Shown piece by piece: positions 9,676 to 22,223 of a stretch of 50,290 bases of DNA. Both the position numbers and the translations under genes were made by a program. The DNA lies in the sequence record DRR723986_8357; one strand, 5' to 3'. The notes below the pieces were generated by a model, which was not told the origin of the DNA, made no database searches, and was given only the letters and a program-made list of their open reading frames with translations. How positions within the stretch are numbered: position 1 is the first letter of the stretch; each line of letters opens with the position of its first letter.

Positions 9676-10881
9676 GTGCATACATTGCCAAGGGGCTCAT
9701 CACGATCGAGCAAACGGAGCCGCAAGAGTTCTGACGCGTACCGCTCTGCTCACGAAGATTTTACCAAGCCGGAGGGAATGTTCTCCACTCTGTGTCGGTT
9801 TATCGGTGGTGGCATTAAGCGATCGTTCTTCGACTTGTTCCGCATTGGCCGTATCGGGATCAATGTTTTCGATGGAACCAAGATGTGGTTGTGGGCTCAC
9901 CGAAAGTCGTTGCCCATTGTTCTGCTCGGATTGTTCGTTTTTATCCTAGGTGTGTATTTTGGAAGCATCTGGCTGTCCAAGTCATCTGGCGGCAAGAAGT
10001 CCAGTGCGAGTTTAGTTGGCGATTCTTCTGCGCAGCTCACTGGGAATCCTAACGGGAGTCTTACTGGGCAAGACGATGTTGGAGCGTTAGGGGGCGGTGA
10101 TTCCAGTGAAGACGCCGCCGATCGCGGGGCTGACGATTTGCCGCTCCAGCCGGCTGTCGACCAAGGATTGGCTGGTGATCAAAGCAATGCTTCGGTAGGT
10201 TTCATGGAAGAGGAAGATCCTGAAGCCGCATTGGCTGGAATCCTGAAGATTGGACGTCGAATGGTTGACGGACGGCAGTATTCCCGGGCCAACAAGATCT
10301 TGTCGCAAGCCCTCGAGAAGCACTATGATTCGTCGGAGCTTGTCTATCTGCTAGTGATTAGTCAGTTGGCCAATCGAGACTACGCCGATGCGGGCGCTCT
10401 GCTTTCCGATGAGAGATTTCTGGACGCGGAGGATCCCATTTGGCAGGTGCTCTACACGTCGTGGTTGTTGTACTCTCCGCGAACTTCACATCCAAGTGCA
10501 GCGAAAAAACTGACAGAAGCTATTTCGCTTCGCGTCGATGATCAAACGGAGGTGGAGCGCATACCGGGATGGTTTGATGCTCGTCGTGGCAATTACCAAC
10601 GTGCGGTCAAAGTGCTGTCGTCCGTGCCCGCCAGTGGCGAGCGTTCCTTCGTCGACGCACTGTTCTATTCCGTTGCCTTGACGCAAGCTGGGGAGTCTGG
10701 GCGCGCGCTGGCGTTCCTCACTCAGGCCAAAGAAAAGCTTGCTGTGGCGAGCGATACGGCTGAACTAGAAAGCGATTCAACCATGTCGCTAGCGGTGCGA
10801 ACGTGCAAGGGTACAATAACTCGCGCGTTGGTCCGTTACTCAGCGAAACTTGAAGCGATGGCGGCAAAGTCGGGACCGTAG
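9676..10881 (+). CDS. Membrane-anchored TPR-like hypothetical protein
   Basis: Single TM helix (IVLLGLFVFILGVYFG), acidic linker, helical repeats such as GNYQRAVKVL. Confidence 0.7.
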   Translation: MHTLPRGSSRSSKRSRKSSDAYRSAHEDFTKPEGMFSTLCRFIGGGIKRSFFDLFRIGRIGINVFDGTKMWLWAHRKSLPIVLLGLFVFILGVYFGSIWLSKSSGGKKSSASLVGDSSAQLTGNPNGSLTGQDDVGALGGGDSSEDAADRGADDLPLQPAVDQGLAGDQSNASVGFMEEEDPEAALAGILKIGRRMVDGRQYSRANKILSQALEKHYDSSELVYLLVISQLANRDYADAGALLSDERFLDAEDPIWQVLYTSWLLYSPRTSHPSAAKKLTEAISLRVDDQTEVERIPGWFDARRGNYQRAVKVLSSVPASGERSFVDALFYSVALTQAGESGRALAFLTQAKEKLAVASDTAELESDSTMSLAVRTCKGTITRALVRYSAKLEAMAAKSGP

Positions 10882-10994
10882 AATCGGTCGCCGAAGCGGT
10901 TGGTGGGCAGCAGCGTCGTGATTCTTACCTCGGCTCTGTGACTTGGCTGTTTGACTAGCTCGGGCTTCGCTTCTTCTTTCTAGTGCGAAAAAAC

Positions 10995-11663
10995 ATGGAT
11001 GCCCGTCTACGTGCTGCGTCGCGAATGATTGCAGGCCCCCGGCATTGTGACATCGGTAGTGATCATGGCTACCTTCTGCATGATTTACTGTCTCGTGGCG
11101 TGATCAGTCATGGTATCGCGGTTGAAAACAAGGCTGCGCCGCACGCAAATTCTGTTCGAACACTCTCAGGCATGGCCGCTGAGGTCCGTTTGGGCGACGG
11201 TCTTGAGCCGATACGAGAGGGTGAAATTGATTCACTGAGTATCTGCGGAATGGGCGCGGAGTCGATCGTGAAAATCCTGGGTGCGTATCCCGATCGAGTT
11301 CCTGGAAAGGTTGTTTTGCAGGCGAATCGTCAGTCGGAATTGTTGCGCCGCTGGGCCATCGAGGCTGGGTTTTGGTTGGTTGACGAAGTTGAGATTTGCG
11401 GCCGCTGGTGGTACGAGATTTTGCAGTTCGAATACCATCCCTGTGAGGCGGATCCGGCTTACCGCAATTCAACCGAGGCAAGCAAGCAAGCAATTGCACT
11501 AGCGCTTGGTCCGCACTTTATTGGTCGCAAAGATGCAACGACTCAAGAACGTTTTCGTGCTGAAGCGGAGAAGCTGCGGCAGCACGAGACGCTAAATGGC
11601 GCGTCGACCCGTCGGCTTATGTACCTCGATGAAGTGCTAGGTGGCTGGCAAGGCGACAAGTGA
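10995..11663 (+). CDS. trmK: tRNA (adenine(22)-N1)-methyltransferase TrmK family
   Basis: RL..., DIGSDHGYL, RLGDGLEPI, ICGMG, LQAN, YEIL motifs. Confidence 0.85.
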   Translation: MDARLRAASRMIAGPRHCDIGSDHGYLLHDLLSRGVISHGIAVENKAAPHANSVRTLSGMAAEVRLGDGLEPIREGEIDSLSICGMGAESIVKILGAYPDRVPGKVVLQANRQSELLRRWAIEAGFWLVDEVEICGRWWYEILQFEYHPCEADPAYRNSTEASKQAIALALGPHFIGRKDATTQERFRAEAEKLRQHETLNGASTRRLMYLDEVLGGWQGDK

Positions 11664-11772
11664 GAGCACTCGTATTTTCGCCGTCCGGCCCGGAATGAGA
11701 TTAGCGCGAGTGTGCATCGGGGCAATGATCCACACTCTCGCTTGGTCGCAGGAATTTGCGGCAACCCAACGG

Positions 11773-12522
11773 TTACAGCAAGGACTCTAGCAGGAGGCGA
11801 AGTTTCCGCAATTCGCCACGTTGGTCAAACTCTGGCATCGGAGGCATTTGAATGCTCAATGCGTGAGTGTAGCCAGATCGAGACAATTGCAGAGCGATCT
11901 TCCCATAGTCGACTTCGCCCTGCCCTACTCTGACCTGTAGTTGGTCTTTCTTGGAATCTCGCAGATGACAATGGAATACGTATTCCATGATCATGTCGAG
12001 ACTCTTGTTGGGGCAGGGTCCACAGAGATAGTGGCTGGGGTCGAGCGTTAATCCGAGTCCCTTCACGTTGTCGCAAAGAACTTTGACCGTTTCGGGATCT
12101 TCACTCAGACGACCAATCTGGCTTTTCATTGCTACACGAACACCTTCGTCGGTAGCAATGTCGACCAAGCGTTGCAGTCTTTCCACTTCTTCGTTGAACG
12201 GTGTGCCCAGTTCGCCTGAGGGAACTGTCAGCGTGACGACTTTCGTCGCTTTGCCCAAGCGGCAGATTGCAGCAAACTGCTCGAGGTACTGGTCACCTGT
12301 TGCATCAATGTGTACATCGTAGCTGCAAACTTCAAGTCGGTGGCTTTTTCTCGCCAGGGCGATTGCCTTGTCAAAATTGGCATCAATCCGACTCGGGCTC
12401 AGCGCACTACCGTTTTCACGAAGTGCTAGCTCAACGGTAGTGAACTCAAGATCAACAAACGCTTCGATAACATCGGGCATTTGCATCTCAGGGAAACAAT
12501 CTGTCGATACAGCAACATACAC
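11773..12522 (-). CDS. Sugar phosphate isomerase/epimerase (xylose-isomerase-like TIM barrel)
   Basis: GLTLDPSH, HCHLRD, VGQGEVDY motifs; AGGAG RBS before GTG. Confidence 0.85.
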   Translation of the reverse strand: MYVAVSTDCFPEMQMPDVIEAFVDLEFTTVELALRENGSALSPSRIDANFDKAIALARKSHRLEVCSYDVHIDATGDQYLEQFAAICRLGKATKVVTLTVPSGELGTPFNEEVERLQRLVDIATDEGVRVAMKSQIGRLSEDPETVKVLCDNVKGLGLTLDPSHYLCGPCPNKSLDMIMEYVFHCHLRDSKKDQLQVRVGQGEVDYGKIALQLSRSGYTHALSIQMPPMPEFDQRGELRKLRLLLESLL

Positions 12523-12901
12523 TGCTGCTCCTCCTTGCTATTCATTTAGGCTGCGAAACCGTGCAGCCGATGGTTCGGTATGTTCGTCGTGTCGTGCTAT
12601 GGTACTATCGACCAAGTTCGATGCACAACGCGGTCACAGAATTCTCCTGTGACGATTCGGTCCGTTGAATCCGCTTCCCGGATGTTACAGGATACGCCAA
12701 TTGCCATTCCAGTCCAGATTGGCTAATCATCCTTTATTTCCCCAAATGCTTGCTATCGGGCAATGCAACGGGGCGAATCGAGGCCCGGCCAGGATCGCAG
12801 CGAGAGGTGGCTGGCGCGGACTTTGGGAATGCAGCTAAAGGCAGAAGCAGTGCCGCTCGAACAGGTAAGACTTGTTCGGTTGGGATACAGCGGCAGGGCT
12901 G

Positions 12902-13426
12902 CTAGCTGGCCATCCTGCGACCTTCGACTTCGTGGGAGTGCACTTCTTCGGCACTCGGACGATAGCGAAGTTGCATGAGGTAAGCGTCTTCGGTTGTGTC
13001 TTCGTAGTAGTCGCGAAGAACGCTGATGGCTCGGAATCCAAGTTGCTTGAAGAACAACTGAGCTTCAAGGTTGGTTTCGCGAACTTCAAGAAGGATTCTA
13101 TTGCGTCGTTCTGCAGACAGTTTGCCAATGAGTTTTTGAATCATTGTCCGTCCGACGTCGCTACGACGCATTTCGGGGGCGACGGCAAAATTGAGCAGGT
13201 GAAGTCGGTTCTTGTGGAGTTCATAGATCATGAATCCAACAACTTCTTCATCTACCTCGGCAACCATGCCAATGCAGTTGCGCTGACGAAGGCAGCGGAT
13301 AAATTCTTCTTCTGACCACGGGAATTCGAAGCTCGCCTCTTCGATCGCCAGCACGTTTGGCATATCACGCCGAATCATCCAACGAATGTGTGCTGAAGAC
13401 GATTGCTTGCTTTTCTGCAGTGGCAT
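12902..13426 (-). CDS. rimI: Ribosomal protein S18-alanine N-acetyltransferase
   Basis: IEEASFEFPWS, LHLLNFAVAP..RR..VG, LEVRETN..AQ.F, RDYY..EDA; GGAGGGA RBS before ATG 13426. Confidence 0.92.
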   Translation of the reverse strand: MPLQKSKQSSSAHIRWMIRRDMPNVLAIEEASFEFPWSEEEFIRCLRQRNCIGMVAEVDEEVVGFMIYELHKNRLHLLNFAVAPEMRRSDVGRTMIQKLIGKLSAERRNRILLEVRETNLEAQLFFKQLGFRAISVLRDYYEDTTEDAYLMQLRYRPSAEEVHSHEVEGRRMAS

Positions 13427-13755
13427 CCTAGAAATCCCTCCGAGTAACTTTCGCTTTAACGAAAGCATCATGCTCGCCACCAGTTTCGTGTCGCAGAGCG
13501 GCTCGTCACCAAGTGATTTTGGTAACCCTCTGCACATCAAAACAGTGGCGTGTTTCGGTCAACATTTTTGTCGACTACCCTTAGGCGGCGGATGTTATCA
13601 AATCCAACTCGCTCAGCCAATACAGATGTCGAGAGAACGTGGAAACTCAATCGAGCTTCAGCACGTAAAGCGATAACGATTGCAGGCAAAGTTGCACGTT
13701 GTGAACGATTTGATGTTCACCTTTAGCGCGGAGCCGCGAGTTCGTTTAGCTGAGT

Positions 13756-14865
13756 CTAATATTGGGATGTTGAAACAAGCGGCGTGATGAAATCGCGGAC
13801 ACGCAGGCCAAGGTCAATTGCTTGGTGTTTGAGCTTCGGTACTAGTTTTGGGCTGGAGATTCTGAAATCACAGTGAGGGACTGGCGAGGCCCCCAATTGC
13901 GCTTTGTACGGTTCATCGCCGCGCAAAAAGTCGATTGCTGTTTGGCCGTTTTGAGTTGCCTGAACAATGTGCCATAGATTGCACAGGTTGCCCGGTTCCA
14001 GATGCAGGTGCTCGGGCGAGATTCCAGATTGGTACGCAAAAACGGTTTGGTTTTCGACCAGGGAAAACTCAGCAGCAATGGGCTGTTCGTCGTGCTCGAA
14101 CCAAAACAGTCGCAGACCGTTTCGCGCCAAGGCACTTTCGCTTGCCCGCCAGAGCAGATCTTCAAATCGGGGATCTTGGAAGCAACCTGGTTCGCCAAGG
14201 CTATTCCGGCGACGCTGATGGAGATCCTTGAGGACATCTAGTCCGCGTTTCAGAGTGTCTTCATCCGTAACGTGGTGGGCGGCGAATTCGCCCGATTCAA
14301 TCTTCTTCAGCTTGCGACGCGCTTTTTTGCGATGGTTCTTGGAAACCCCCTGCAGATATTCATCGATACTGCCAGGAATGTTAAGACGCCAACAGTTGTA
14401 GGCTGAGCGTCTGCTTATCATGCAGCCAGCAGCCTCCAATTGACGGGCGAGAGCGATCACATTTTCGTCGTCCTGCGCCACTCCTTCGAAGTGAATCGAG
14501 TCCCAGTCGTCCCAGGACATGATCTCGGCAGCAACTGCCTCAGCTATCTCTTCAATGTTGCGTTCAGAGGCAGCGAGGGTCATATAGTCAGGGCAAATTG
14601 AACCAGCGCCAATAAACCGAAGGACCGAAGCCCCTTTGTCTCGCGTGAGCAGCAGGGGGAGCAGTCCAAGAACATCATCGCCAACACGGGCGACAACGAT
14701 ACGCGGTGTGGCGTTCTTCGGAGAGTATGTTTGCAGCCAGGCACATAGCCATTCGGGGGACATAAAGGGGCTTGGAGCCCGCATTAATGTCACTATCTGC
14801 GCATTCCCCTCAATCGCGACTATATTGTCCAACGTCTCTATCACGGGTGTATTTAACTTGAGCAT
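13756..14865 (-). CDS. GNAT family N-acyltransferase, CelD/BcsL (Acetyltransf_6) type
   Basis: SPFMSPEWL, GLLPL, DYM, YL..VSKNHRKKARRKLKKI, AYQSG, IDFLRGDEPYK. Confidence 0.88.
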   Translation of the reverse strand: MLKLNTPVIETLDNIVAIEGNAQIVTLMRAPSPFMSPEWLCAWLQTYSPKNATPRIVVARVGDDVLGLLPLLLTRDKGASVLRFIGAGSICPDYMTLAASERNIEEIAEAVAAEIMSWDDWDSIHFEGVAQDDENVIALARQLEAAGCMISRRSAYNCWRLNIPGSIDEYLQGVSKNHRKKARRKLKKIESGEFAAHHVTDEDTLKRGLDVLKDLHQRRRNSLGEPGCFQDPRFEDLLWRASESALARNGLRLFWFEHDEQPIAAEFSLVENQTVFAYQSGISPEHLHLEPGNLCNLWHIVQATQNGQTAIDFLRGDEPYKAQLGASPVPHCDFRISSPKLVPKLKHQAIDLGLRVRDFITPLVSTSQY

Positions 14866-15078
14866 AAGTTGAAGATTCCCAATTCCTGGCCCTTTATCGC
14901 ATTCTAGATTTAACCGTACGTCAATCAGAACGCTTCGCAACTGCGGAGCTTCACAATTCAACGCTTGCCCGACGTGATCGTAGGCATCACCACGTTAGCG
15001 TTGCCGGCGTGCGCTTTAACTGGGCCCAGCCCTCATTTGCCAACCAGTAAATAAGCCTGCGAATTTCGGAACTATGCC

Positions 15079-16392
15079 ATGCTTGATTCGTTTCGATCCC
15101 ATGAGTCCAACGTCCGTGGGTACATCCGATTGTTCCCAACTCTATTCGATCGAGCGGTAGGATCTGAAGTCTTCAACGTCGATGGCCAGCGCTTCATCGA
15201 TTTCTTTTGCGGCGCTGGAAGTCTGAACTACGGACACAACAATCCGCGTGCCAAAGAAGCGATTCTCGAGTACATCAACCGCGATGGAATTCAACATTCG
15301 CTAGACGCTGCGACTGTTGCGAAGGCGGATTTTATCGACGAATTTCAGCGCGTCATTCTCGCTCCACGCGATTTGCGGTACCGGATGCAGTTCACCGGTC
15401 CAACGGGTACCAACGCGGTCGAAGCAGCGATCAAGATTGCCAAGAAAGCGACCCAACGCAGTCATGTGATCGCATTTACGCATGCCTACCATGGCCACAC
15501 GCTCGGTGCCCTGGCACTGACTGCCAACGAATACTATCACGATGAACACTACGGTTCACGTAACAATGTGACTCACATTCCATTCTGTGGTTATCATGAA
15601 GGCCTAGACTCCGCAAAACTGCTGTCTCAGATGCTCTCTGATTCGAGCAGCGGCCTCCCTAAACCGGCCGCGATCGTATTAGAGACTGTCCAGGGAGAGG
15701 GGGGCGTAAACGTTGCGACGCCGGAATGGCTTCTGGAAATCGAGGACATTTGCCGACACCATGGAATCCTCTTGATTGTGGACGATATCCAAGTAGGAAA
15801 CGGCCGAACGGGAGATTTCTTCAGCTTTGAAGACTCTGGCATTAAGCCCGATATCGTATGCCTGTCGAAGTCTATCGGAGGCGGGCTTCCGCTGTCGGTC
15901 GTGTTGTTGAACGAAGAAGCCGATGTTTGGAAGCCAGGGGAGCACACCGGTACGTTCCGAGGCAACAATCTAGCCTTTGTCGCCGCGACTGCGCTTCTAA
16001 AGTACTGGAGCGATCAAGATTTCCTCAAGCACATTGTTTCGCAAGAGTCACTTTTGCACTCCGAATTGCAAGCGATTGCCAAGAGATTCGAGGTCAGCGT
16101 TCGCGGTCGCGGATTTATTCAGGGAATTGACTGTGGCGATGGCAAAATCGCTCGCGAAGTTATCGACGAGTGCTTTGGAAACGGCCTCTTGATGGAAGCC
16201 TCTGGTGCAAATGATGAAGTGCTGAAGGTAATGCCGGCCCTGACGATGTCGCCCGAACTTCTCAAAGAGGGCCTGCGCATCGTAAGTGCAGCCTTAACGA
16301 GCGTCGCAAAGAAACACCGTCCGTTGCTAGCGCAAGGAGATGCATCGACGGGCGAAGCCTCTGCCAATATGCCCCTGGGAATAGAGCTTTGA
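15079..16392 (+). CDS. ectB: Diaminobutyrate--2-oxoglutarate transaminase (EctB-like, class III PLP aminotransferase)
   Basis: ESNVRGY, DFFCGAGSLNYGHNNP, QFTGPTGTNAVEAAIK, ETVQGEGG, DDIQVGNGRTG, LSKSIGG, WKPGEHTGTFRGNN. Confidence 0.9.
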   Translation: MLDSFRSHESNVRGYIRLFPTLFDRAVGSEVFNVDGQRFIDFFCGAGSLNYGHNNPRAKEAILEYINRDGIQHSLDAATVAKADFIDEFQRVILAPRDLRYRMQFTGPTGTNAVEAAIKIAKKATQRSHVIAFTHAYHGHTLGALALTANEYYHDEHYGSRNNVTHIPFCGYHEGLDSAKLLSQMLSDSSSGLPKPAAIVLETVQGEGGVNVATPEWLLEIEDICRHHGILLIVDDIQVGNGRTGDFFSFEDSGIKPDIVCLSKSIGGGLPLSVVLLNEEADVWKPGEHTGTFRGNNLAFVAATALLKYWSDQDFLKHIVSQESLLHSELQAIAKRFEVSVRGRGFIQGIDCGDGKIAREVIDECFGNGLLMEASGANDEVLKVMPALTMSPELLKEGLRIVSAALTSVAKKHRPLLAQGDASTGEASANMPLGIEL

Positions 16393-19166
16393 ACGCAGTC
16401 TGCGGAATTGAACACAGTTTCATGGAAGTGACTTTACGCCCCCAAGACTCAGACGTTACCGTGCTCTCGCTGTTCGAGAAGTGGGAAGAGTCTGCGCCCG
16501 GACAACTTGCGGTCGTTCATGATAGCGCGGAATTCACCTACGCGGACTTGAAGTCTCGTGCTGACGGTATTGCCCACGCTCTGCATGCGGCAGGAGTGCG
16601 CCGGGGTGCGCGAGTTGGGATGCGTCTGCAACATTCCGCCGACGCTATCGCCTCCATGCTGGCTGCGTTTCAATTGGGAGCAGCTTTCGTCCCGCTGGAC
16701 CCAGATTTTCCTCAGGAACGCATCGCTTTCATGCTCGAGGATTCTGAAATCGAGACGATTTTGGTCGACGACGATTGGCAACCCCCATCGTCCGCGACTG
16801 CCAAATTGTTGAGCGTCAGCGATATCGAAGCGGTCCAAACGCAGAACGGTGAGTTCGCCGAAGACTTCGCGGCTCCACCGTTTGACACCTGTGCTCAACC
16901 AGATGATCTTGCGTATATCATGTACACATCCGGGTCCACCGGAAAACCCAAGGGAGTCTTGATCGATCACCGTGCGTTGACGACGTATTGCCGCGCTGAT
17001 GTTGAAGTCTATCAACTGCGCGACGACGATCGAACGCTTCAGTTTTCAACGCTTTGTTTTGATATCGCAATTGAAGAGATCTTTCCACCGCTAATCAGTG
17101 GCGGAGCCATCGTCGTTCGCCCTAGTGAAAGAGCGGATTCCGCAAACGAACTGTCAGCGATCATCGATCGATACAGCGTCACGGCGATCCACTTGGCTAC
17201 AGCTTACTGGCACGAGTGGGTCGATCTAATGGTGGCGTCAGCAGATCGTGCGCCCGAAAGTCTGCGGCTGGTAATTGCGACCGGCGAAAAAGTCTCAACG
17301 GCACACTATCGGCGTTGGATTGATTTGTGCGATCAGGATGTATTGTGGTGCAATGCCTACGGTCCAACTGAGGCGACGGTGACGGCAACCGTATTTGTGC
17401 CGGATCGTGATTTTGATCGCGAGCCGATGCCTATTGGAAAACCGTTGCCAGGCTATTCTGCTTGGATTCTTGATGCTGAAATGCGGCCAATTGACGTACC
17501 CGATCCCTGTGCAAAAGCAACGCCCGAGCCAGTAGACAACGAACAAGGAGCTGCACAGGAAAAAGCACTCGGGATCAGCGACGCTGGGATCAGTGAAACG
17601 GGGACGTTATACGTTGGTGGACCGGCGCTGGCACTTGGATACTTGAATCGGCCTGAATTGACGGAGAAAGCGTTCGTTGAAGTCGAACTGCCGCATGGAA
17701 GAGAACGACTCTATTGCACTGGAGATCTCGCTAGGTGGTTGCCCGACGGGAATATTGAGTTCGCAGGCCGTGTTGACCACCAAATTAAACTCGGATCGTA
17801 TCGCATTGAGCCAGGTGAAATTGAGGCTGGGTTGACTGCGCATCCCGGCGTTCTAGAAGCATTAGTACTGCACGAGCAGGTTGGCGCTCAAAAATACCTT
17901 GTCGCCTACGTAGTGAACTCGGATCCGGCGAAGTTGGATCTGGTTGACCTGGCTCGTCATGTTCGCGAGAGTTTGCCAGCGTACATGGTGCCGCACCGAT
18001 ATTGCGTGCTTCCAAAATTTCAAAAGACGATCAATGGCAAGGTTGATCGAAAGGCGTTACCTGATCCTGCGACGGCAGTCGTTCCCAACCAAGATGATTT
18101 CTGTCCGCCCGAAAGCGACACAGAGAAAAAATTGGCGGCGATTTGGACCGAGGTACTGCAAGTTCCGCGAGTGTCTGTCGACGATGACTTTTTCTACCTT
18201 GGTGGGAGTTCATTGCTGGCCGCACGTGTGATTGCTGAGCTGAAAAAGTCTCTCGACGTTGAGCTCCCGGTTCGCGATTTCTTTGCCAAGCCAACACTGG
18301 TAGAGGCTGCCGAGCACGTCGAACTGCTGTTGGGCGGGAAAAAGGGTAGCGATCCATCTCGCGCTACGAAGCGGCAAAGAGTTAAGCCCCAGCCAAGTTT
18401 TGTACGGACGCCACAAGGTAATCAGCTCTTCCATGTGGCTTATCAACCGCAAGCAACGGCGCGGCATGCTGTTGTGGTCTGTCATCCCTGGGGGCATGAG
18501 TACGTTCGGGCGTACCGTAATCTACAGCAGTTGAGTATACGTCTGGCTGACAAGGGCGTTGCGACGCATCGGTTTGATTATTCTGGAACCGGCAACTCCA
18601 GCGGCAGTCGCAATGATGTCACAATTGAGACCATGGTTGATGACACCTTAGCGATGCTTAGCGAGATCCTTAGCAACGAGGATCTAGAGCGAGTCACGCT
18701 CGTCGGCGTCCGGCTCGGTGCGACTGTAGGCGCGCATGCACTGCAGAAGTTTAAGGACTCACGCCTAGACTTTATCGCCTGGGATCCAATCTTGGACGGG
18801 CGCGAGTTCGTATCGCAACTTGAGTCAATGCACTCCTACGCATTAACTTCTCAGACACGGTTTGTTCGCCGCTGCAAGAACGCAGATCCCGCTCAGCTTT
18901 ATGGGGCTCCGTTCGACGTCCAACAGCGTGAGTCCTTTTCCGCGGTGGCTTTCCCAACTTCAATCGGTGAAATTGCAGCCACTTCGGTTGTATTGAGCCA
19001 GGGATATGCTGAAAACGCTGGCGTTCATCAGGGGCACTTGGCGGGCGTTGCTGTGCAGGAAACCAACGATGAGATCTATTGGGAGAACCCAGAGTTCGCC
19101 GAGCGAGCGTTTGCGAGCAGAGAGATCGATACTGCAATCATTAAATCGGTGACGTCCAATCCCTAG
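16389..19166 (+). CDS. Stand-alone NRPS-like protein: adenylation - thiolation - alpha/beta-hydrolase (no condensation domain)
   Basis: A motifs YTSGSTGKPKG, FDIAIEE, NAYGPTE, YCTGDL, GRVDHQIKLGSYRIEPGEIE, NGKVDR; T motif DDFFYLGGSSL; C-terminal P.GHE...YR, RFDYSGTG.S, GVRLGA, WDP; TTG start overlaps the ectB stop (alternative ATG 16422). Confidence 0.92.
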   Translation: MNAVCGIEHSFMEVTLRPQDSDVTVLSLFEKWEESAPGQLAVVHDSAEFTYADLKSRADGIAHALHAAGVRRGARVGMRLQHSADAIASMLAAFQLGAAFVPLDPDFPQERIAFMLEDSEIETILVDDDWQPPSSATAKLLSVSDIEAVQTQNGEFAEDFAAPPFDTCAQPDDLAYIMYTSGSTGKPKGVLIDHRALTTYCRADVEVYQLRDDDRTLQFSTLCFDIAIEEIFPPLISGGAIVVRPSERADSANELSAIIDRYSVTAIHLATAYWHEWVDLMVASADRAPESLRLVIATGEKVSTAHYRRWIDLCDQDVLWCNAYGPTEATVTATVFVPDRDFDREPMPIGKPLPGYSAWILDAEMRPIDVPDPCAKATPEPVDNEQGAAQEKALGISDAGISETGTLYVGGPALALGYLNRPELTEKAFVEVELPHGRERLYCTGDLARWLPDGNIEFAGRVDHQIKLGSYRIEPGEIEAGLTAHPGVLEALVLHEQVGAQKYLVAYVVNSDPAKLDLVDLARHVRESLPAYMVPHRYCVLPKFQKTINGKVDRKALPDPATAVVPNQDDFCPPESDTEKKLAAIWTEVLQVPRVSVDDDFFYLGGSSLLAARVIAELKKSLDVELPVRDFFAKPTLVEAAEHVELLLGGKKGSDPSRATKRQRVKPQPSFVRTPQGNQLFHVAYQPQATARHAVVVCHPWGHEYVRAYRNLQQLSIRLADKGVATHRFDYSGTGNSSGSRNDVTIETMVDDTLAMLSEILSNEDLERVTLVGVRLGATVGAHALQKFKDSRLDFIAWDPILDGREFVSQLESMHSYALTSQTRFVRRCKNADPAQLYGAPFDVQQRESFSAVAFPTSIGEIAATSVVLSQGYAENAGVHQGHLAGVAVQETNDEIYWENPEFAERAFASREIDTAIIKSVTSNP

Positions 19167-19214
19167 GTTCGATTATTGCACGGCACATTGCGTTCACAAG
19201 CACTAGAGAAATCA

Positions 19215-20060
19215 ATGATAGGCACGACGTCGAGATCAAGCGAACCTGAGGCGGCATTGTTTGGCTCAGAAGAGAATTTGGTTGGGGTCTATACGCCCGC
19301 CGAAAGCCAGCCTTCGAAGTTTGCTGTCGTCATGGTGACGGCTGGCATGCTGCACAGTCCCGGTCCCTTCGGGTTGCATTCGGATCTTGCCGTAGGCCTT
19401 GCGCAAGCCGGCATTTCAAGTCTGCGATTCGACCTGTCGGGTATTGGGGAGAGTCTCACTGGTGGATCTACGGCTGTTTCGCTGGACCGTGCCGCCGATG
19501 AGATTCAGTCTGCTGCAGGTTGGATTCGTGAGCATCATGGTGTTAGCCGGTTCGGCTTGTTCGGCCTTTGTTCCGGTGCCGACGACTCCATCTATACCGC
19601 GACGCACACAGACGACTTTGGGGCGATTTTTGCCGTGGATGGGTGTGGCTATCGGACGAAGCAGTTTTATTGGCATCGGGTTGTAAATCATTATTTGCCA
19701 AAGGTATTCAACCGGCGACGTTGGGCATCTTTCCTGTCTACTCAACTATCTGAACAGCAGAGCGGTGTTCCCAGCTCACTGCAACTTCAGGACGATATCC
19801 GAGAGTTTCCTGAGCAGTCCGTAGCAGAAGAGCAGTTGCAGAAGTTGGGCGATCGCGGTGTCAGAGTGAACATGTTTTACACCGGAGGTGTTGGGGAGTA
19901 CTTCAACCACGCTGGGCAGTTCCGAAAGATGTTTCCGAATCTGAAGAGCCCTAACGTGACTAGCGAGTACTGGCCCGATTGCGACCACACCGCTTTCCTG
20001 CTTGAACATCGTCAGCGGCTTGTATCACGGGCAACCGAATTCTTTGCCGGCTGTGCGTGA
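19215..20060 (+). CDS. Alpha/beta-hydrolase-fold protein (exosortase-associated hydrolase-1-like)
   Basis: LVGVYT, AGMLHSPGP, LRFDLSGIGES, GLCSGAD, C-terminal DHTA. Confidence 0.85.
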   Translation: MIGTTSRSSEPEAALFGSEENLVGVYTPAESQPSKFAVVMVTAGMLHSPGPFGLHSDLAVGLAQAGISSLRFDLSGIGESLTGGSTAVSLDRAADEIQSAAGWIREHHGVSRFGLFGLCSGADDSIYTATHTDDFGAIFAVDGCGYRTKQFYWHRVVNHYLPKVFNRRRWASFLSTQLSEQQSGVPSSLQLQDDIREFPEQSVAEEQLQKLGDRGVRVNMFYTGGVGEYFNHAGQFRKMFPNLKSPNVTSEYWPDCDHTAFLLEHRQRLVSRATEFFAGCA

Positions 20061-20070
20061 CTAGATACTT

Positions 20071-20703
20071 CTAAGCGCGGTCGCTGTCCAAGGCGTCGTC
20101 GATTGAATCCAGCCCTAGGTCTTCCGCCGCGATGTCGAGCATTTGTTCGGGCGATTCTGATGCTTCTGGCTGCTCACGCTGAGTGGCTTTGGTGACGGTA
20201 ATAGCCGCTTCAGTTGGTTTGACGACAAAATCCCGGCCACGTTTCTCGATTATTTCGACACGCGTTTCTGCTTCGATAGCACCCGCCTGGGCGACTAAAT
20301 TGAAGATTTGGTTGTTTAGCCGGACTGCACCACTCGGAAGCAACGGAGTGTCAAGTAGAATCACTTCTCCGATTGGAAATTCCGTTTCGTTACTTTCCGT
20401 TACCTCGTCGGCCCTTTGTGGCGGATTGAGTATGACGCGTTTGCCGACATAAGTCCGCGGCCAGACTTTCACCGCTAGAAACAGTGCTCCCGGAACGGCG
20501 GACAATGAGAGCGTCAGCATGACCATCCCAAAGGTCTGGCTGACCCGAAATGCGAACAAGACACTCGCCAGCGTCGCAATGATGCCAATGATCAAGAGCG
20601 TCGCCCCACTTGGAATAAACAAATCCAAGAAGGCAAGTGTGATGCCCACCAAGAAGAGTGTGATAGATAGGTAGATTGGGTCCACGGTTGTGATTTCTCT
20701 CAT
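20071..20703 (-). CDS. NfeD family membrane protein
   Basis: LDLFIPSG followed by TM helices, then OB-fold T.L.PSG.V...I......VEI. Confidence 0.8.
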   Translation of the reverse strand: MREITTVDPIYLSITLFLVGITLAFLDLFIPSGATLLIIGIIATLASVLFAFRVSQTFGMVMLTLSLSAVPGALFLAVKVWPRTYVGKRVILNPPQRADEVTESNETEFPIGEVILLDTPLLPSGAVRLNNQIFNLVAQAGAIEAETRVEIIEKRGRDFVVKPTEAAITVTKATQREQPEASESPEQMLDIAAEDLGLDSIDDALDSDRA

Positions 20704-20765
20704 TTGGGCCAGCCAAAACGCAGGTCGTACCGAGCTCTCCGAAGCACTCAGAGGTTGTCGCCCTT

Positions 20766-20881
20766 AAGCCCGCACTGCGAAAGCCCCGCACTGTCCGAAA
20801 CCTGTCAAAGCCCCGCACTGCCCACTGCACTGTGAATCGAGTGGTTTGGCTACTATCATCTCTGCTCAGGCTACTATCATC
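20766..20881. repeat. Intergenic direct repeats
   Basis: AAGCCC(C)GCACTG x3 (20766, 20781, 20808) and GGCTACTATCATC x2 (20848, 20869). Confidence 0.8.
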
Positions 20882-20939
20882 ATTGTTGGGTGGCGAGACA
20901 AGTCAAAAAACTCATTCGCGCTTTTAGGAAGCTCGGTTC

Positions 20940-22223
20940 ATGCTGATAACGGAAATCATCGCCAAGAAACGTGATAGCCGCGAATTATCTGACCAGGAGA
21001 TAGCGTTCGTCGTTGATGGGATCAGTAATGGCTCACTGCCGGATTACCAACTGGCTTCGTGGGCAATGGCAGTGCTGTGCCGGGGCATGTCGAGCCGTGA
21101 AACTGCGACGCTCACCGATTGCATGCTTGGAAGTGGACGAAGGCTTCAGCGGGCGACCGACCGACCGCGGGTCGACAAGCATTCGACGGGTGGCCTGGGC
21201 GATAAGGTCTCGCTGATACTGGCCCCGCTGATAGCTCTGTTCGACGTCGATGTGCCAATGTTAAGTGGGCGAGGGCTGGGAATCACCGGCGGCACACTCG
21301 ACAAATTGGAGGCCTTTCAGGGCTACCGAACAGATTTGTCGGAAGCAGAAGTGGACCACCAGTTGAAATCGATTGGCTGTGTCATTACGGGAACGACACA
21401 GGACGTTGCACCGGCGGACAAGCGGTTGTATCTGCTACGGGATGCAACGGCAACGGTTCCGTCGATCGCACTGATAACGGGATCCATCATGTCCAAGAAA
21501 CTTGCCGCGTCGCTCGACGCACTTGTCTTGGATGTGAAGTTCGGTTCCGGAGCGTTCATGACAAATCGAAACGATGCCAATCAGTTGGCGGAAAGTTTGG
21601 TTGCGACTGGACGGCGAATGGATGTCAAAACGTCTGCGATACTTTCCGACATGGAGCAACCGTTGGGGGAGATGGTTGGAAACGCATGCGAAGTCAACGA
21701 GTCGATTGAGATCTTGCGAGGAGCTGGGCCCTGCGACGCTCGTGACCTGACGATTGCGTTGTGCGCGGAGCTGTTGGTTCAAATAGGGCGATTCAAAGAA
21801 ATCTCTGAAGCGGATGCTGCGTTGCAGGCTCGCCTGGCCGACGGATCCGCACTCAAACGTTTTCAGGAGATGGTTGAGATGCAGGGCGGGACTTTCGCCG
21901 ACGCCCTGCCATTGGCCGATGCGTATGTTGTCGAGGCTGAGAAAACTGGATTCATTCAATCGACCGATGGTGCCACCCTTGGGAACTGCGTCATATCATT
22001 AGGAGGCGGCCGCAAGCAGCTTGGGGACCCAGTGCTTCACGACGTCGGACTGAAGATGCACAAGAAAATCGGTGACGAGGTTGGAACGGGTGAGCAACTG
22101 ATCACTGTTTTTGCACGATCAAAAAACGATTTTGAAGCTGTCCAGACGCGATTAAGAGACGCAATCAAAATCTCTTCATCACCGGTTGCACCGAATCGGC
22201 TATTCGAACGCGTGGCATCTTAG
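20940..22223 (+). CDS. deoA: Thymidine / pyrimidine-nucleoside phosphorylase
   Basis: II.KKRD, DYQ, DKHSTGGLGDK, SGRGLGITGGTLDKLE, SIMSKKLA, DVKFGSGAFM. Confidence 0.93.
   Translation: MLITEIIAKKRDSRELSDQEIAFVVDGISNGSLPDYQLASWAMAVLCRGMSSRETATLTDCMLGSGRRLQRATDRPRVDKHSTGGLGDKVSLILAPLIALFDVDVPMLSGRGLGITGGTLDKLEAFQGYRTDLSEAEVDHQLKSIGCVITGTTQDVAPADKRLYLLRDATATVPSIALITGSIMSKKLAASLDALVLDVKFGSGAFMTNRNDANQLAESLVATGRRMDVKTSAILSDMEQPLGEMVGNACEVNESIEILRGAGPCDARDLTIALCAELLVQIGRFKEISEADAALQARLADGSALKRFQEMVEMQGGTFADALPLADAYVVEAEKTGFIQSTDGATLGNCVISLGGGRKQLGDPVLHDVGLKMHKKIGDEVGTGEQLITVFARSKNDFEAVQTRLRDAIKISSSPVAPNRLFERVAS

Follow-up and report, generated by a model that had tools for sequence, protein, structure and literature searches.

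An operon linking an EctB-type aminotransferase to a single adenylation-carrier module and a paired Arg/Cys hydrolase predicted to off-load diaminobutyrate

Organization of the locus

A stretch of 50,290 nucleotides from sequence record DRR723986_8357 (the whole of it is called the window here) carries three consecutive genes, of planctomycete type, on one strand. They are ectB, a gene for a protein resembling a single NRPS (non-ribosomal peptide synthetase) module with a hydrolase domain fused to its C-terminus (A-T-Hyd), and a gene for a second, free-standing hydrolase (Hyd2). The reading developed below, for which and against which we find the balance about even, is that these genes form a self-contained operon for L-2,4-diaminobutyrate (Dab), in which the two hydrolases make up a two-part off-loading module that replaces both the thioesterase (TE) and the condensation (C) domain. 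The genes and domains are as follows.

13756-14961, minus strand: GNAT of FemAB/Acetyltransf_6 type, 401 aa (Pfam Acetyltransf_6 9.1e-27, FemAB_like 1.6e-7)
15079-16392, plus strand: ectB, first gene of the operon, 437 aa (Pfam Aminotran_3 2.2e-82; TIGR02407)
16389-19166, plus strand: A-T-Hyd, single-module NRPS-like protein, 925 aa (Pfam and NCBIfam domains)
16473-18041, plus strand: adenylation (A) domain of A-T-Hyd, residues 29-551 (specificity code)
18129-18320, plus strand: carrier domain (thiolation or peptidyl carrier protein, T/PCP) of A-T-Hyd, residues 581-644 (PF00550 PP-binding 1.9e-14)
18366-19163, plus strand: C-terminal alpha/beta-hydrolase domain of A-T-Hyd (Arg775 of the elbow at nt 18711-18713)
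19176-20060, plus strand: Hyd2, free-standing alpha/beta hydrolase, 294 aa (TIGR03100 1.1e-14; AlphaFold2 fold)

An initial annotation of this DNA had named the GNAT, ectB, the A-T-hydrolase and the second hydrolase, and the listing of open reading frames (ORFs) together with family scans placed all four ORFs at the same coordinates. The Pfam domains of A-T-Hyd are AMP-binding (residues 29-418), AMP-binding_C (477-551), PP-binding (581-644) and Hydrolase_4 (691-806); Hyd2 has no Pfam match at E <= 0.001. The stop of ectB and the start of A-T-Hyd overlap by 4 nt, and 10 bases separate A-T-Hyd from Hyd2. The same annotation had noted that ectA, ectC and a condensation domain are absent, and this holds: in tblastn searches of the 50-kb window, two Pirellulaceae EctC queries and one C domain gave best E values of 0.25 and 1.5, and the EctA model of NCBIfam matched neither of the two GNATs near the operon.

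Conservation of the three-gene unit

A pattern scan was carried out with one genome per species, and 80 loci from other genomes were collected. The order and strand ectB > A-T-Hyd > Hyd2 are kept in 64 of the 80, with the genes overlapping or nearly abutting; the ordered trio thus recurs far above chance. Full-length homologues of A-T-Hyd are 43-67% identical and come mostly from Pirellulaceae. The 16 loci that do not show the trio are made up of five unrelated multimodular NRPS matches from Chloroflexota and Acidobacteriota (L072, L074, L078, L079, L080), seven loci whose contig stops short on the side that matters (L041, L052, L063, L066, L071, L075, L077), three variants (L067, with ectB after the hydrolase, and the two-module L060 and L062), and L023, in which no Hyd2 is seen, a phosphopantetheinyl transferase (PPTase) gene directly follows the big gene and the contig ends soon beyond.

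When flanking ORFs of the 80 loci were clustered, no further family occurred in more than 10 loci, barring antisense shadows of the trio. The GNAT stands beside the trio only in L001, the closest relative (1/80). In three relatives its best homologues, 26-32% identical, share a chromosome-size contig with the trio at a distance of 0.19-6.6 Mb. The operon core is therefore three genes, at times joined by a PPTase gene, and the GNAT is a neighbour outside the conserved system. The initial annotation had proposed co-conservation of four genes, with the GNAT as a possible transferase of the system; the ectB/A-T-Hyd/Hyd2 part of that proposal stands, and the GNAT drops out of it in both respects.

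The trio is also found outside Planctomycetota, in Thiotrichaceae and other Gammaproteobacteria (L014, L015, L047, L056, L069, L108). Further non-planctomycete loci are L067, in a metagenome-assembled genome labelled delta proteobacterium, and the gammaproteobacterial L023. Six EctBs from Gammaproteobacteria cluster together within the trio-linked sequences of Pirellulaceae, at a Shimodaira-Hasegawa-like approximate likelihood-ratio test (SH-aLRT) support of 94 in a quick, midpoint-rooted tree. This nesting suggests that the operon has moved between lineages as a unit.

EctB as the probable supplier of the operon and not of ectoine synthesis

The aminotransferase matches TIGR02407, an equivalog-level family, at 594.3 bits, the cut-off being 552.2, with residues 5-407 aligning to positions 3-411 of the 412-position model. 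The gene product is predicted to be an L-2,4-diaminobutyrate--2-oxoglutarate transaminase and would be the dedicated Dab supplier of the operon. The initial call of an EctB-type enzyme is borne out by this score and by the tie to both hydrolase genes in the 64 trio loci.

A score above the equivalog cut-off would equally be seen if ectB served ectA and ectC located elsewhere and its NRPS-like neighbour were incidental, an explanation to which we give next to no credence. Neither an EctC (PF06339) nor a GNAT matching the EctA model lies by the operon, which is thus not an ectABC cluster, and the linkage of ectB to the trio in most loci argues in the same direction. In five relatives' genomes the sole gene over the EctB cut-off is the trio member (5/5), and ectC is found in none of the five; as this small search had no positive control, 151 Pirellulaceae genomes were searched as well. 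Full EctC proteins (158-197 bits) occur in 18 of the 151 and fragments in 2 more, and a strong Hyd2 orthologue (E <= 1e-100) occurs in 12. The EctC and Hyd2 sets are disjoint: a real EctC is present in 0 of the 12 strongly trio-bearing genomes, against the 20 other genomes of the same 151 that have one or a fragment of one. Overall, real ectC is found in 0 of 16 genomes of trio-bearing relatives. The overlap expected by chance is near 1.6, so the zero does not prove that the two exclude each other; what it makes plain is that ectC is not required for the trio to work. The sections of a published survey of Pirellulaceae type strains that bear on ectoine (PMC13342039) report ect clusters in 7 of 56 strains, namely five Blastopirellula and Bremerella species, Lignipirellula cremea and Stieleria varia, and none in Rhodopirellula, Rubripirellula or Novipirellula. 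The operon has no part in ectoine synthesis, as the initial annotation had supposed.

Trio-linked EctBs (68 rows) are also split from two ectABC-linked Pirellulaceae EctBs at SH-aLRT 99 in the quick midpoint-rooted tree, for which SH-aLRT is the only support measure; identity to the window EctB is 49-50% for the ectABC-linked and 55-83% for the trio-linked sequences.

One trio genome (G122) has a marginal EctC match of 27.1 bits at a cut-off of 27 bits. This is read as a cupin paralogue because similar matches, as second weak hits, sit beside real EctC in G133 and G096. Weak PF06339 matches of 22-31 bits covering model positions 1-116 are seen in many Pirellulaceae (among them G030, G128, G136, G149, G122 and G075); they probably stem from a cupin paralogue that, at the Pfam cut-off, could pass for ectoine synthase.

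The adenylation domain and its carrier

The A domain matches TIGR01733 with 396 bits against a cut-off of 317.4. Its specificity code was read from an alignment through motifs A4 (FDIAIEE) and A5 (NAYGPTEATVT) and is DIEHITAVTK (D225, I226, E229, H268, I296, T298, A323, V331, T332, K551), with E229 directly after A4. All 63 orthologues, from Pirellulaceae and Gammaproteobacteria, have the code D[IV]EH[IVL]TAV[ST]K, and with it Asp at position 1, Glu at position 3 and Lys at position 10. The passages of PMC12042044 on diamino-acid recognition describe three binding modes; in mode 1, found in PosA, Pls and modules for pyoverdine and syringomycin with substrates from 2,3-diaminopropionate (Dap) to Lys, one Glu at code position 3 anchors the side-chain amine. 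E229 occupies this position. As judged from sequence, the pocket shows the features of the diamino-acid type, and the proposal in the initial annotation that the domain activates Dab agrees with this published signature of Asp at position 1 and Glu at position 3. That the diamino acid would be Dab follows from the linkage with ectB.

The carrier has the motif GGSSL with a predicted phosphopantetheine site at S608 (nt 18210-18212). GGSS[LI] is kept in 62 of the 63 orthologues, the exception being GLSSI in L017. In 11 loci Hyd2 is followed downstream by a gene of the PPTase family, mostly directly and in L021 after about 2 kb, which argues that the carrier is used. Four of these are Sfp-type by Pfam (L037:11714-12424, L046:11539-12300, L047:11463-12203 and L014:11505-12194) and the other seven were assigned by sequence cluster. 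No PPTase gene adjoins the operon of the window. The PPTase slot is filled by two unrelated sequence families, one in Pirellulaceae and one in Gammaproteobacteria.

An arginine in one hydrolase elbow and a cysteine in the other

The hydrolase domain fused to the carrier has the elbow G-V-R-L-G, in which Arg775 takes the nucleophile position. Of 63 orthologues, 62 have an elbow centred on Arg and the remaining one (L053) has a gap there, and the Arg (R121 in domain numbering) is invariant in an alignment of 28 sequences. No conserved His follows the last strand in this alignment and in the structural model. Pfam matches are to Hydrolase_4 and Abhydrolase_1 only, which together with the Arg elbow and the missing His sets the domain apart from a type I thioesterase. 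We take it for a paralogue that has lost catalysis and serves to dock Hyd2 or to bind a substrate group.

Hyd2 has the elbow G130-L-C132-S-G-A-D-D. Cys132 is encoded at nt 19569-19571, Asp155 at nt 19638-19640, and the His of Asp270-His271 at nt 19986-19988. C132, D155, D270 and H271 are invariant in 19 aligned sequences. Among 143 family representatives (142 best hits of <=400 aa and the window protein) the Cys is kept in all 143, and the His and Asp155 in 141 each. The family is large: a HMMER search of 1.84 billion representatives returned at least 1911 clusters (50% identity) at E <= 1e-30. AlphaFold2 models show an alpha/beta-hydrolase fold for Hyd2 (mean predicted local distance difference test, pLDDT, 82.4), and the fused domain was modelled at pLDDT 92.3.

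The two hydrolases are also found in single chains. Four fused di-hydrolases (P0191, P0207, P0208, P0243) have GLR.G in the N-terminal and GLC.G in the C-terminal half, and three chains of 1188-1225 aa (P0038, P0131, P0145) run A-T-Hyd-Hyd. From these gene fusions we infer that the fused domain and Hyd2 may act together as a heterodimer.

The hydrolase pair ends other carrier-dependent lines

The pair is not confined to the trio. Around more distant Hyd2 matches in Pirellulaceae, tblastn placed A-T, an Arg-type hydrolase and a Cys-type hydrolase one after another at every locus looked at (8 of 8). The two of these that were checked with Pfam consist of a polyketide synthase (PKS) AT-ACP-aminotransferase protein, C-A(Gly code)-T and both hydrolases. 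These paralogous PKS/NRPS cassettes (L083-L090, in genomes G119, G074, G131, G149, G148, G029, G084 and G142) combine an aminotransferase-made amine with the same hydrolase pair in a different chemical setting. In seven gammaproteobacterial loci the pair comes after NRPS or PKS-NRPS genes in four and belongs to an ectB trio in one; the remaining two hold a fused di-hydrolase by a glycosidase, and the pair followed by a polysaccharide flippase-like gene (L109). In the two-module variant L060 (Granulosicoccaceae) a protein of 1885 aa is arranged A(DIEHVTAVSK)-T-C-A(DILQALMVWK)-T followed by the Arg-elbow domain, and the Cys hydrolase gene is next to it. L060 is the sole variant without a linked ectB, and its genome has a real ectC elsewhere (199 bits), a single case that fits ectB as the Dab supplier of the operon. 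By this variant a LysE-type basic amino-acid exporter is encoded (L060:14478-15110, minus strand), the only transporter seen beside any version.

No Pfam thioesterase family is present in the synthetases that end in the pair. Since the pair stands where a TE would stand in NRPS and PKS lines, it is read as a general off-loading device for carrier-bound thioesters, in place of a TE.

This position is that of a hydrolytic TE, and it would also suit a scheme in which unlinked enzymes modify T-bound Dab, for example by hydroxylation or methylation, and the pair then hydrolyses off the modified amino acid. Didomains of A-T type are well known to offer their amino acid to tailoring enzymes, CmaA being one that is mentioned in PMC8748450. 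We regard such on-carrier tailoring as quite improbable here, as no tailoring gene is co-conserved across the 80 loci, and the Cys is invariant in the Hyd2 family, the published Cys case going with non-hydrolytic release.

Hyd2 could also be an aminoacyl shuttle carrying Dab to the carrier of another synthetase encoded elsewhere. CmaE and SyrC are described in the accessible part of PMC8748450 as moving aminoacyl groups between T domains, and 1-3 condensation-domain genes are present elsewhere in four of five relatives. In the complete genome G005, however, the trio is present and a search for condensation domains at E <= 1e-10 came up empty, no gene for a second carrier protein is conserved along with the trio, and in relatives the pair stands at the end of lines and not between them. 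A shuttle role is thus considered very improbable. The nucleophile of CmaE and SyrC is a Cys.

Relation to the exosortase-A hydrolases and the question of an external acceptor

The best-scoring families for both hydrolases belong to the cassette associated with the exosortase-A (PEP-CTERM/EpsH) system, which consists of hydrolase 2 (TIGR03101), hydrolase 1 (TIGR03100) and the AMP-forming ligase TIGR03098. From the TIGRFAMs descriptions we take it that the cassette also has a carrier protein and a decarboxylase dependent on pyridoxal phosphate (PLP), and to our knowledge, going by the same descriptions, it is without known function. No functional study of this hydrolase cassette turned up in literature searches. 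The fused domain (residues 658-925) matches TIGR03101 best, at 3.1e-18 and 66.3 bits against a cut-off of 202.75; the best NCBIfam family for Hyd2 is TIGR03100, at 1.1e-14 and 54.4 bits against a cut-off of 168.45. The TIGR03100 model matches 136 of 136 Hyd2 family representatives, the best E value being only 1.7e-31.

The gene order is the same as in the operon, with the Arg-elbow hydrolase before the Cys hydrolase, and both systems lie beside an adenylate-forming enzyme. True TIGR03100 genes were taken from a sample of 300 Gammaproteobacteria, with one locus left out. Their products have WGLCDAAS and (D/N)HTF in 10 of 10, where the window Hyd2 has GLCSGAD and DHTAF, and the neighbouring hydrolase 2 has an Arg-centred elbow in 10 of 10, mostly G-L-R-x-G, where the window has GVRLG. 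The differences are that both scores fall far below the curated cut-offs, that the ligase here is a true amino-acid A domain fused to carrier and hydrolase 2, and that the PLP enzyme is EctB and not a decarboxylase. No exosortase, PEP-CTERM or polysaccharide genes are among the ten ORFs scanned next to the operon (9676 to 22223). By sequence, then, the pair groups as a distant, fused relative of the exosortase-A pair that shares its catalytic signature, and is not a member of it.

Remote homology to exosortase-A hydrolase 2 and hydrolase 1, with the Arg and Cys-His signatures each in 10 of 10, bears on the possibility that Hyd2 passes Dab to a hydroxyl or amine of an external acceptor whose genes lie elsewhere in the genome, be it a glycan precursor, a lipid or another metabolite, and so produces a cationic decoration. 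This is the idea of the initial annotation with the GNAT taken out. Two loci lend it further weight. In L067 (3183-7056) a Wzx-type flippase, a polysaccharide deacetylase and a glycosyltransferase of family 4 (GT4) lie directly upstream of the trio on the same strand, and in L109 (4752-8260), which has no A-T gene, a Polysacc_synt_3 gene comes right after the pair. CouN7, as far as the available sections of PMC8748450 go, moves a carrier-bound acyl group to a free-standing substrate. Against an external acceptor, L067 is the only one of 75 trio-type loci with polysaccharide genes next to it; the trio is not co-conserved with any membrane transferase, exporter or glycosyltransferase; a Pfam scan of the proteins found no signal-peptide or membrane family, and their N-termini are by eye unlike signal peptides; and the same pair ends ordinary NRPS/PKS lines too. 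We consider this alternative unlikely, though to be taken seriously.

A special form of it is envelope aminoacylation of the Dlt/Alm type, the comparison drawn in the initial annotation. Dlt and Alm resemble the operon in having a stand-alone A domain and a carrier with no condensation domain, and DltA models did match the A domain. The scores (241.7 and 225.2 bits) are, however, well short of the cut-offs (476 and 559.85), and no MBOAT, DltD or AlmG-type transferase is encoded in the ten scanned ORFs or the conserved flanks. With no membrane transferase, and polysaccharide genes at so few loci, the Dlt/Alm model is not upheld; the envelope idea survives as a minority rival through the exosortase-A kinship and L109.

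A proposed route from aspartate semialdehyde to a Dab amide

In the self-contained Dab operon that we favour, EctB would convert aspartate semialdehyde to Dab, as its equivalog-level family membership indicates. The A domain would adenylate Dab and load it as a thioester on the phosphopantetheine of S608, to which the specificity code and the gene linkage point. The Dab thioester would then be transferred to Cys132 of Hyd2, working with the Arg775 domain; this step is argued for by the conserved residues, by the fused genes and by other carrier lines that likewise finish with the Arg/Cys pair. An amine, and not water, would resolve the Cys-thioester, because hydrolysis would only regenerate Dab and undo the ATP spent, and because a Cys-thioesterase precedent, SulM, releases its product by ring closure. 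The amine would most likely be that of Dab itself, as no acceptor-specific gene is co-conserved and G005 has the trio with no condensation domain. The product would in that case be the gamma-lactam (3-aminopyrrolidin-2-one), a Dab-Dab amide or a short oligomer. This last step, in nucleophile and product alike, is the weakest and most conjectural, and most of the doubt in the proposed chain falls on it.

Several known systems share parts of this scheme. The TE of SulM, which acts in monobactam formation, has, in the account given in the relevant sections of PMC12042044, an active-site Cys for Ser and uses the side-chain nitrogen of a diamino acid on the carrier to close a beta-lactam; it is, like Hyd2 as read here, a release enzyme of alpha/beta-hydrolase type with Cys in the place of Ser. 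It is also described there as a single cis type I TE ending a multimodular NRPS, with N-sulfonated Dap in a tripeptide as substrate, whereas the operon has a two-protein pair, Hydrolase_4 and not Thioesterase, and a single amino acid as predicted substrate. Kinship of the SulM TE with the pair was not seen in fold searches.

The cationic homopoly(amino acid) synthetases Pls and PosA, as portrayed in the same portions of PMC12042044, likewise have a single A-T module with the mode 1 Glu and no classical elongation module. In the operon an alpha/beta-hydrolase domain follows the T domain and a second hydrolase follows that, and no Condensation family is found in A-T-Hyd. Pls and PosA have membrane-embedded tandem C-like domains after the T domain.

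Among the enzymes treated in the available text of PMC8748450, the free-standing CmaE, SyrC and CouN7 collect an aminoacyl or acyl group from a T domain for onward transfer, and PacP (A-T-TE0) is an A-T-TE tridomain whose TE has no catalytic triad. These differ from the operon in that no second carrier or known acceptor is linked here. A paired Arg/Cys architecture is not described for any of the four in that text, the comparison being by description only.

Points that weigh against the proposal

Some findings speak against the self-contained Dab operon or loosen individual steps of it. The mode 1 Glu cannot tell Dab from ornithine (Orn), Lys or Dap. Code positions 278, 299 and 301 were mapped with what we take to be the PheA numbering. 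As a check on the numbering, those columns of the alignment were also read for the A domains at two paralogous loci, where they spell DILQLGMVWK; this is presumably the canonical glycine-type code, and the check leans on that assumption in turn. In multimodular relatives the pair could just hydrolyse. Were that the case in this operon, its gene content would be hard to understand unless Dab were tailored on the carrier by unlinked enzymes. A thioester of Dab readily forms a ring unaided, so a carrier with two hydrolases looks excessive for making a lactam. Relatives of the pair in polysaccharide loci (the exosortase-A cassettes, L067 and L109) favour an external acceptor.

Structure comparison does not help the proposal either. 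Foldseek on the PDB and VIA-align gave generic alpha/beta hydrolases only and no specific relative. The matches were a lipase, a feruloyl esterase, a dienelactone hydrolase and DcsB, with Z of about 21-22 or a template modelling (TM) score of 0.56-0.67 and identities of 11-18%. The SulM TE, ObiF and PHA synthase are not among the fold matches listed, and the ESM Atlas returned unnamed alpha/beta-hydrolase clusters only. Finally, the genes themselves display an EctB-grade enzyme, a diamino-acid pocket, a carrier motif, a Cys-His-Asp hydrolase and a paralogous domain with neither nucleophile nor His; the substrate, the thioester on Cys132, the heterodimer and the product go beyond this and are predictions throughout.

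A bolder view, speculative and in our estimate improbable, is that the Arg/Cys pair is an unrecognised, widespread amide-forming machine that needs no condensation domain, in which the Cys subunit would hold one carrier-delivered unit as a thioester and the dead Arg subunit would position the incoming amine, making oligo- or poly-Dab or a cyclic dimer in the present case. By analogy, the Cys subunit would act like polyhydroxyalkanoate (PHA) synthase or an iterative thioesterase. If true, this would mean that soluble enzymes with no relation to the Pls family can make cationic poly(amino acids), and would account for the hydrolase 1 and hydrolase 2 genes of exosortase-A polysaccharide loci.

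Implications

EctB, the A-T module and alpha/beta hydrolases are all known, and the hydrolase pair has been catalogued in NCBIfam for exosortase-A loci. Literature searches found nothing in print on the Arg/Cys signature of the pair, on the pair as the terminal unit of NRPS-like and NRPS/PKS lines, or on the fixed coupling of ectB in a three-gene operon in Pirellulaceae and some Gammaproteobacteria. In many Pirellulaceae an EctB-grade gene is separated from ectoine synthesis, where automatic annotation would suggest an osmolyte role. The compact operon of three genes, sometimes with a PPTase, would be for a Dab-derived compound, and its release device is one for which the searches brought up no solved structure or studied member. 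A function found for this small operon would mean a function for a large hydrolase family, including exosortase-A hydrolases 1 and 2, and with three proteins and one cheap substrate it is a tractable test case.

Surroundings of the operon

An Rfam scan of 12500-21000 gave no match at E <= 0.1, and a scan for promoters and terminators found nothing exceeding the shuffled background. The other neighbours among the ten scanned ORFs encode a RimI-type GNAT, a TrmK-like methyltransferase, a TPR protein, a xylose-isomerase-like TIM-barrel protein, NfeD and thymidine phosphorylase; they are unrelated to the operon and of housekeeping type. The NfeD-like membrane protein (20071-20703, minus strand) is convergent to Hyd2. 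The NfeD family follows the trio in six sources (the window, L001, L003, L010, L031 and L065), a recurrence that probably reflects common sub-lineage ancestry and not function.

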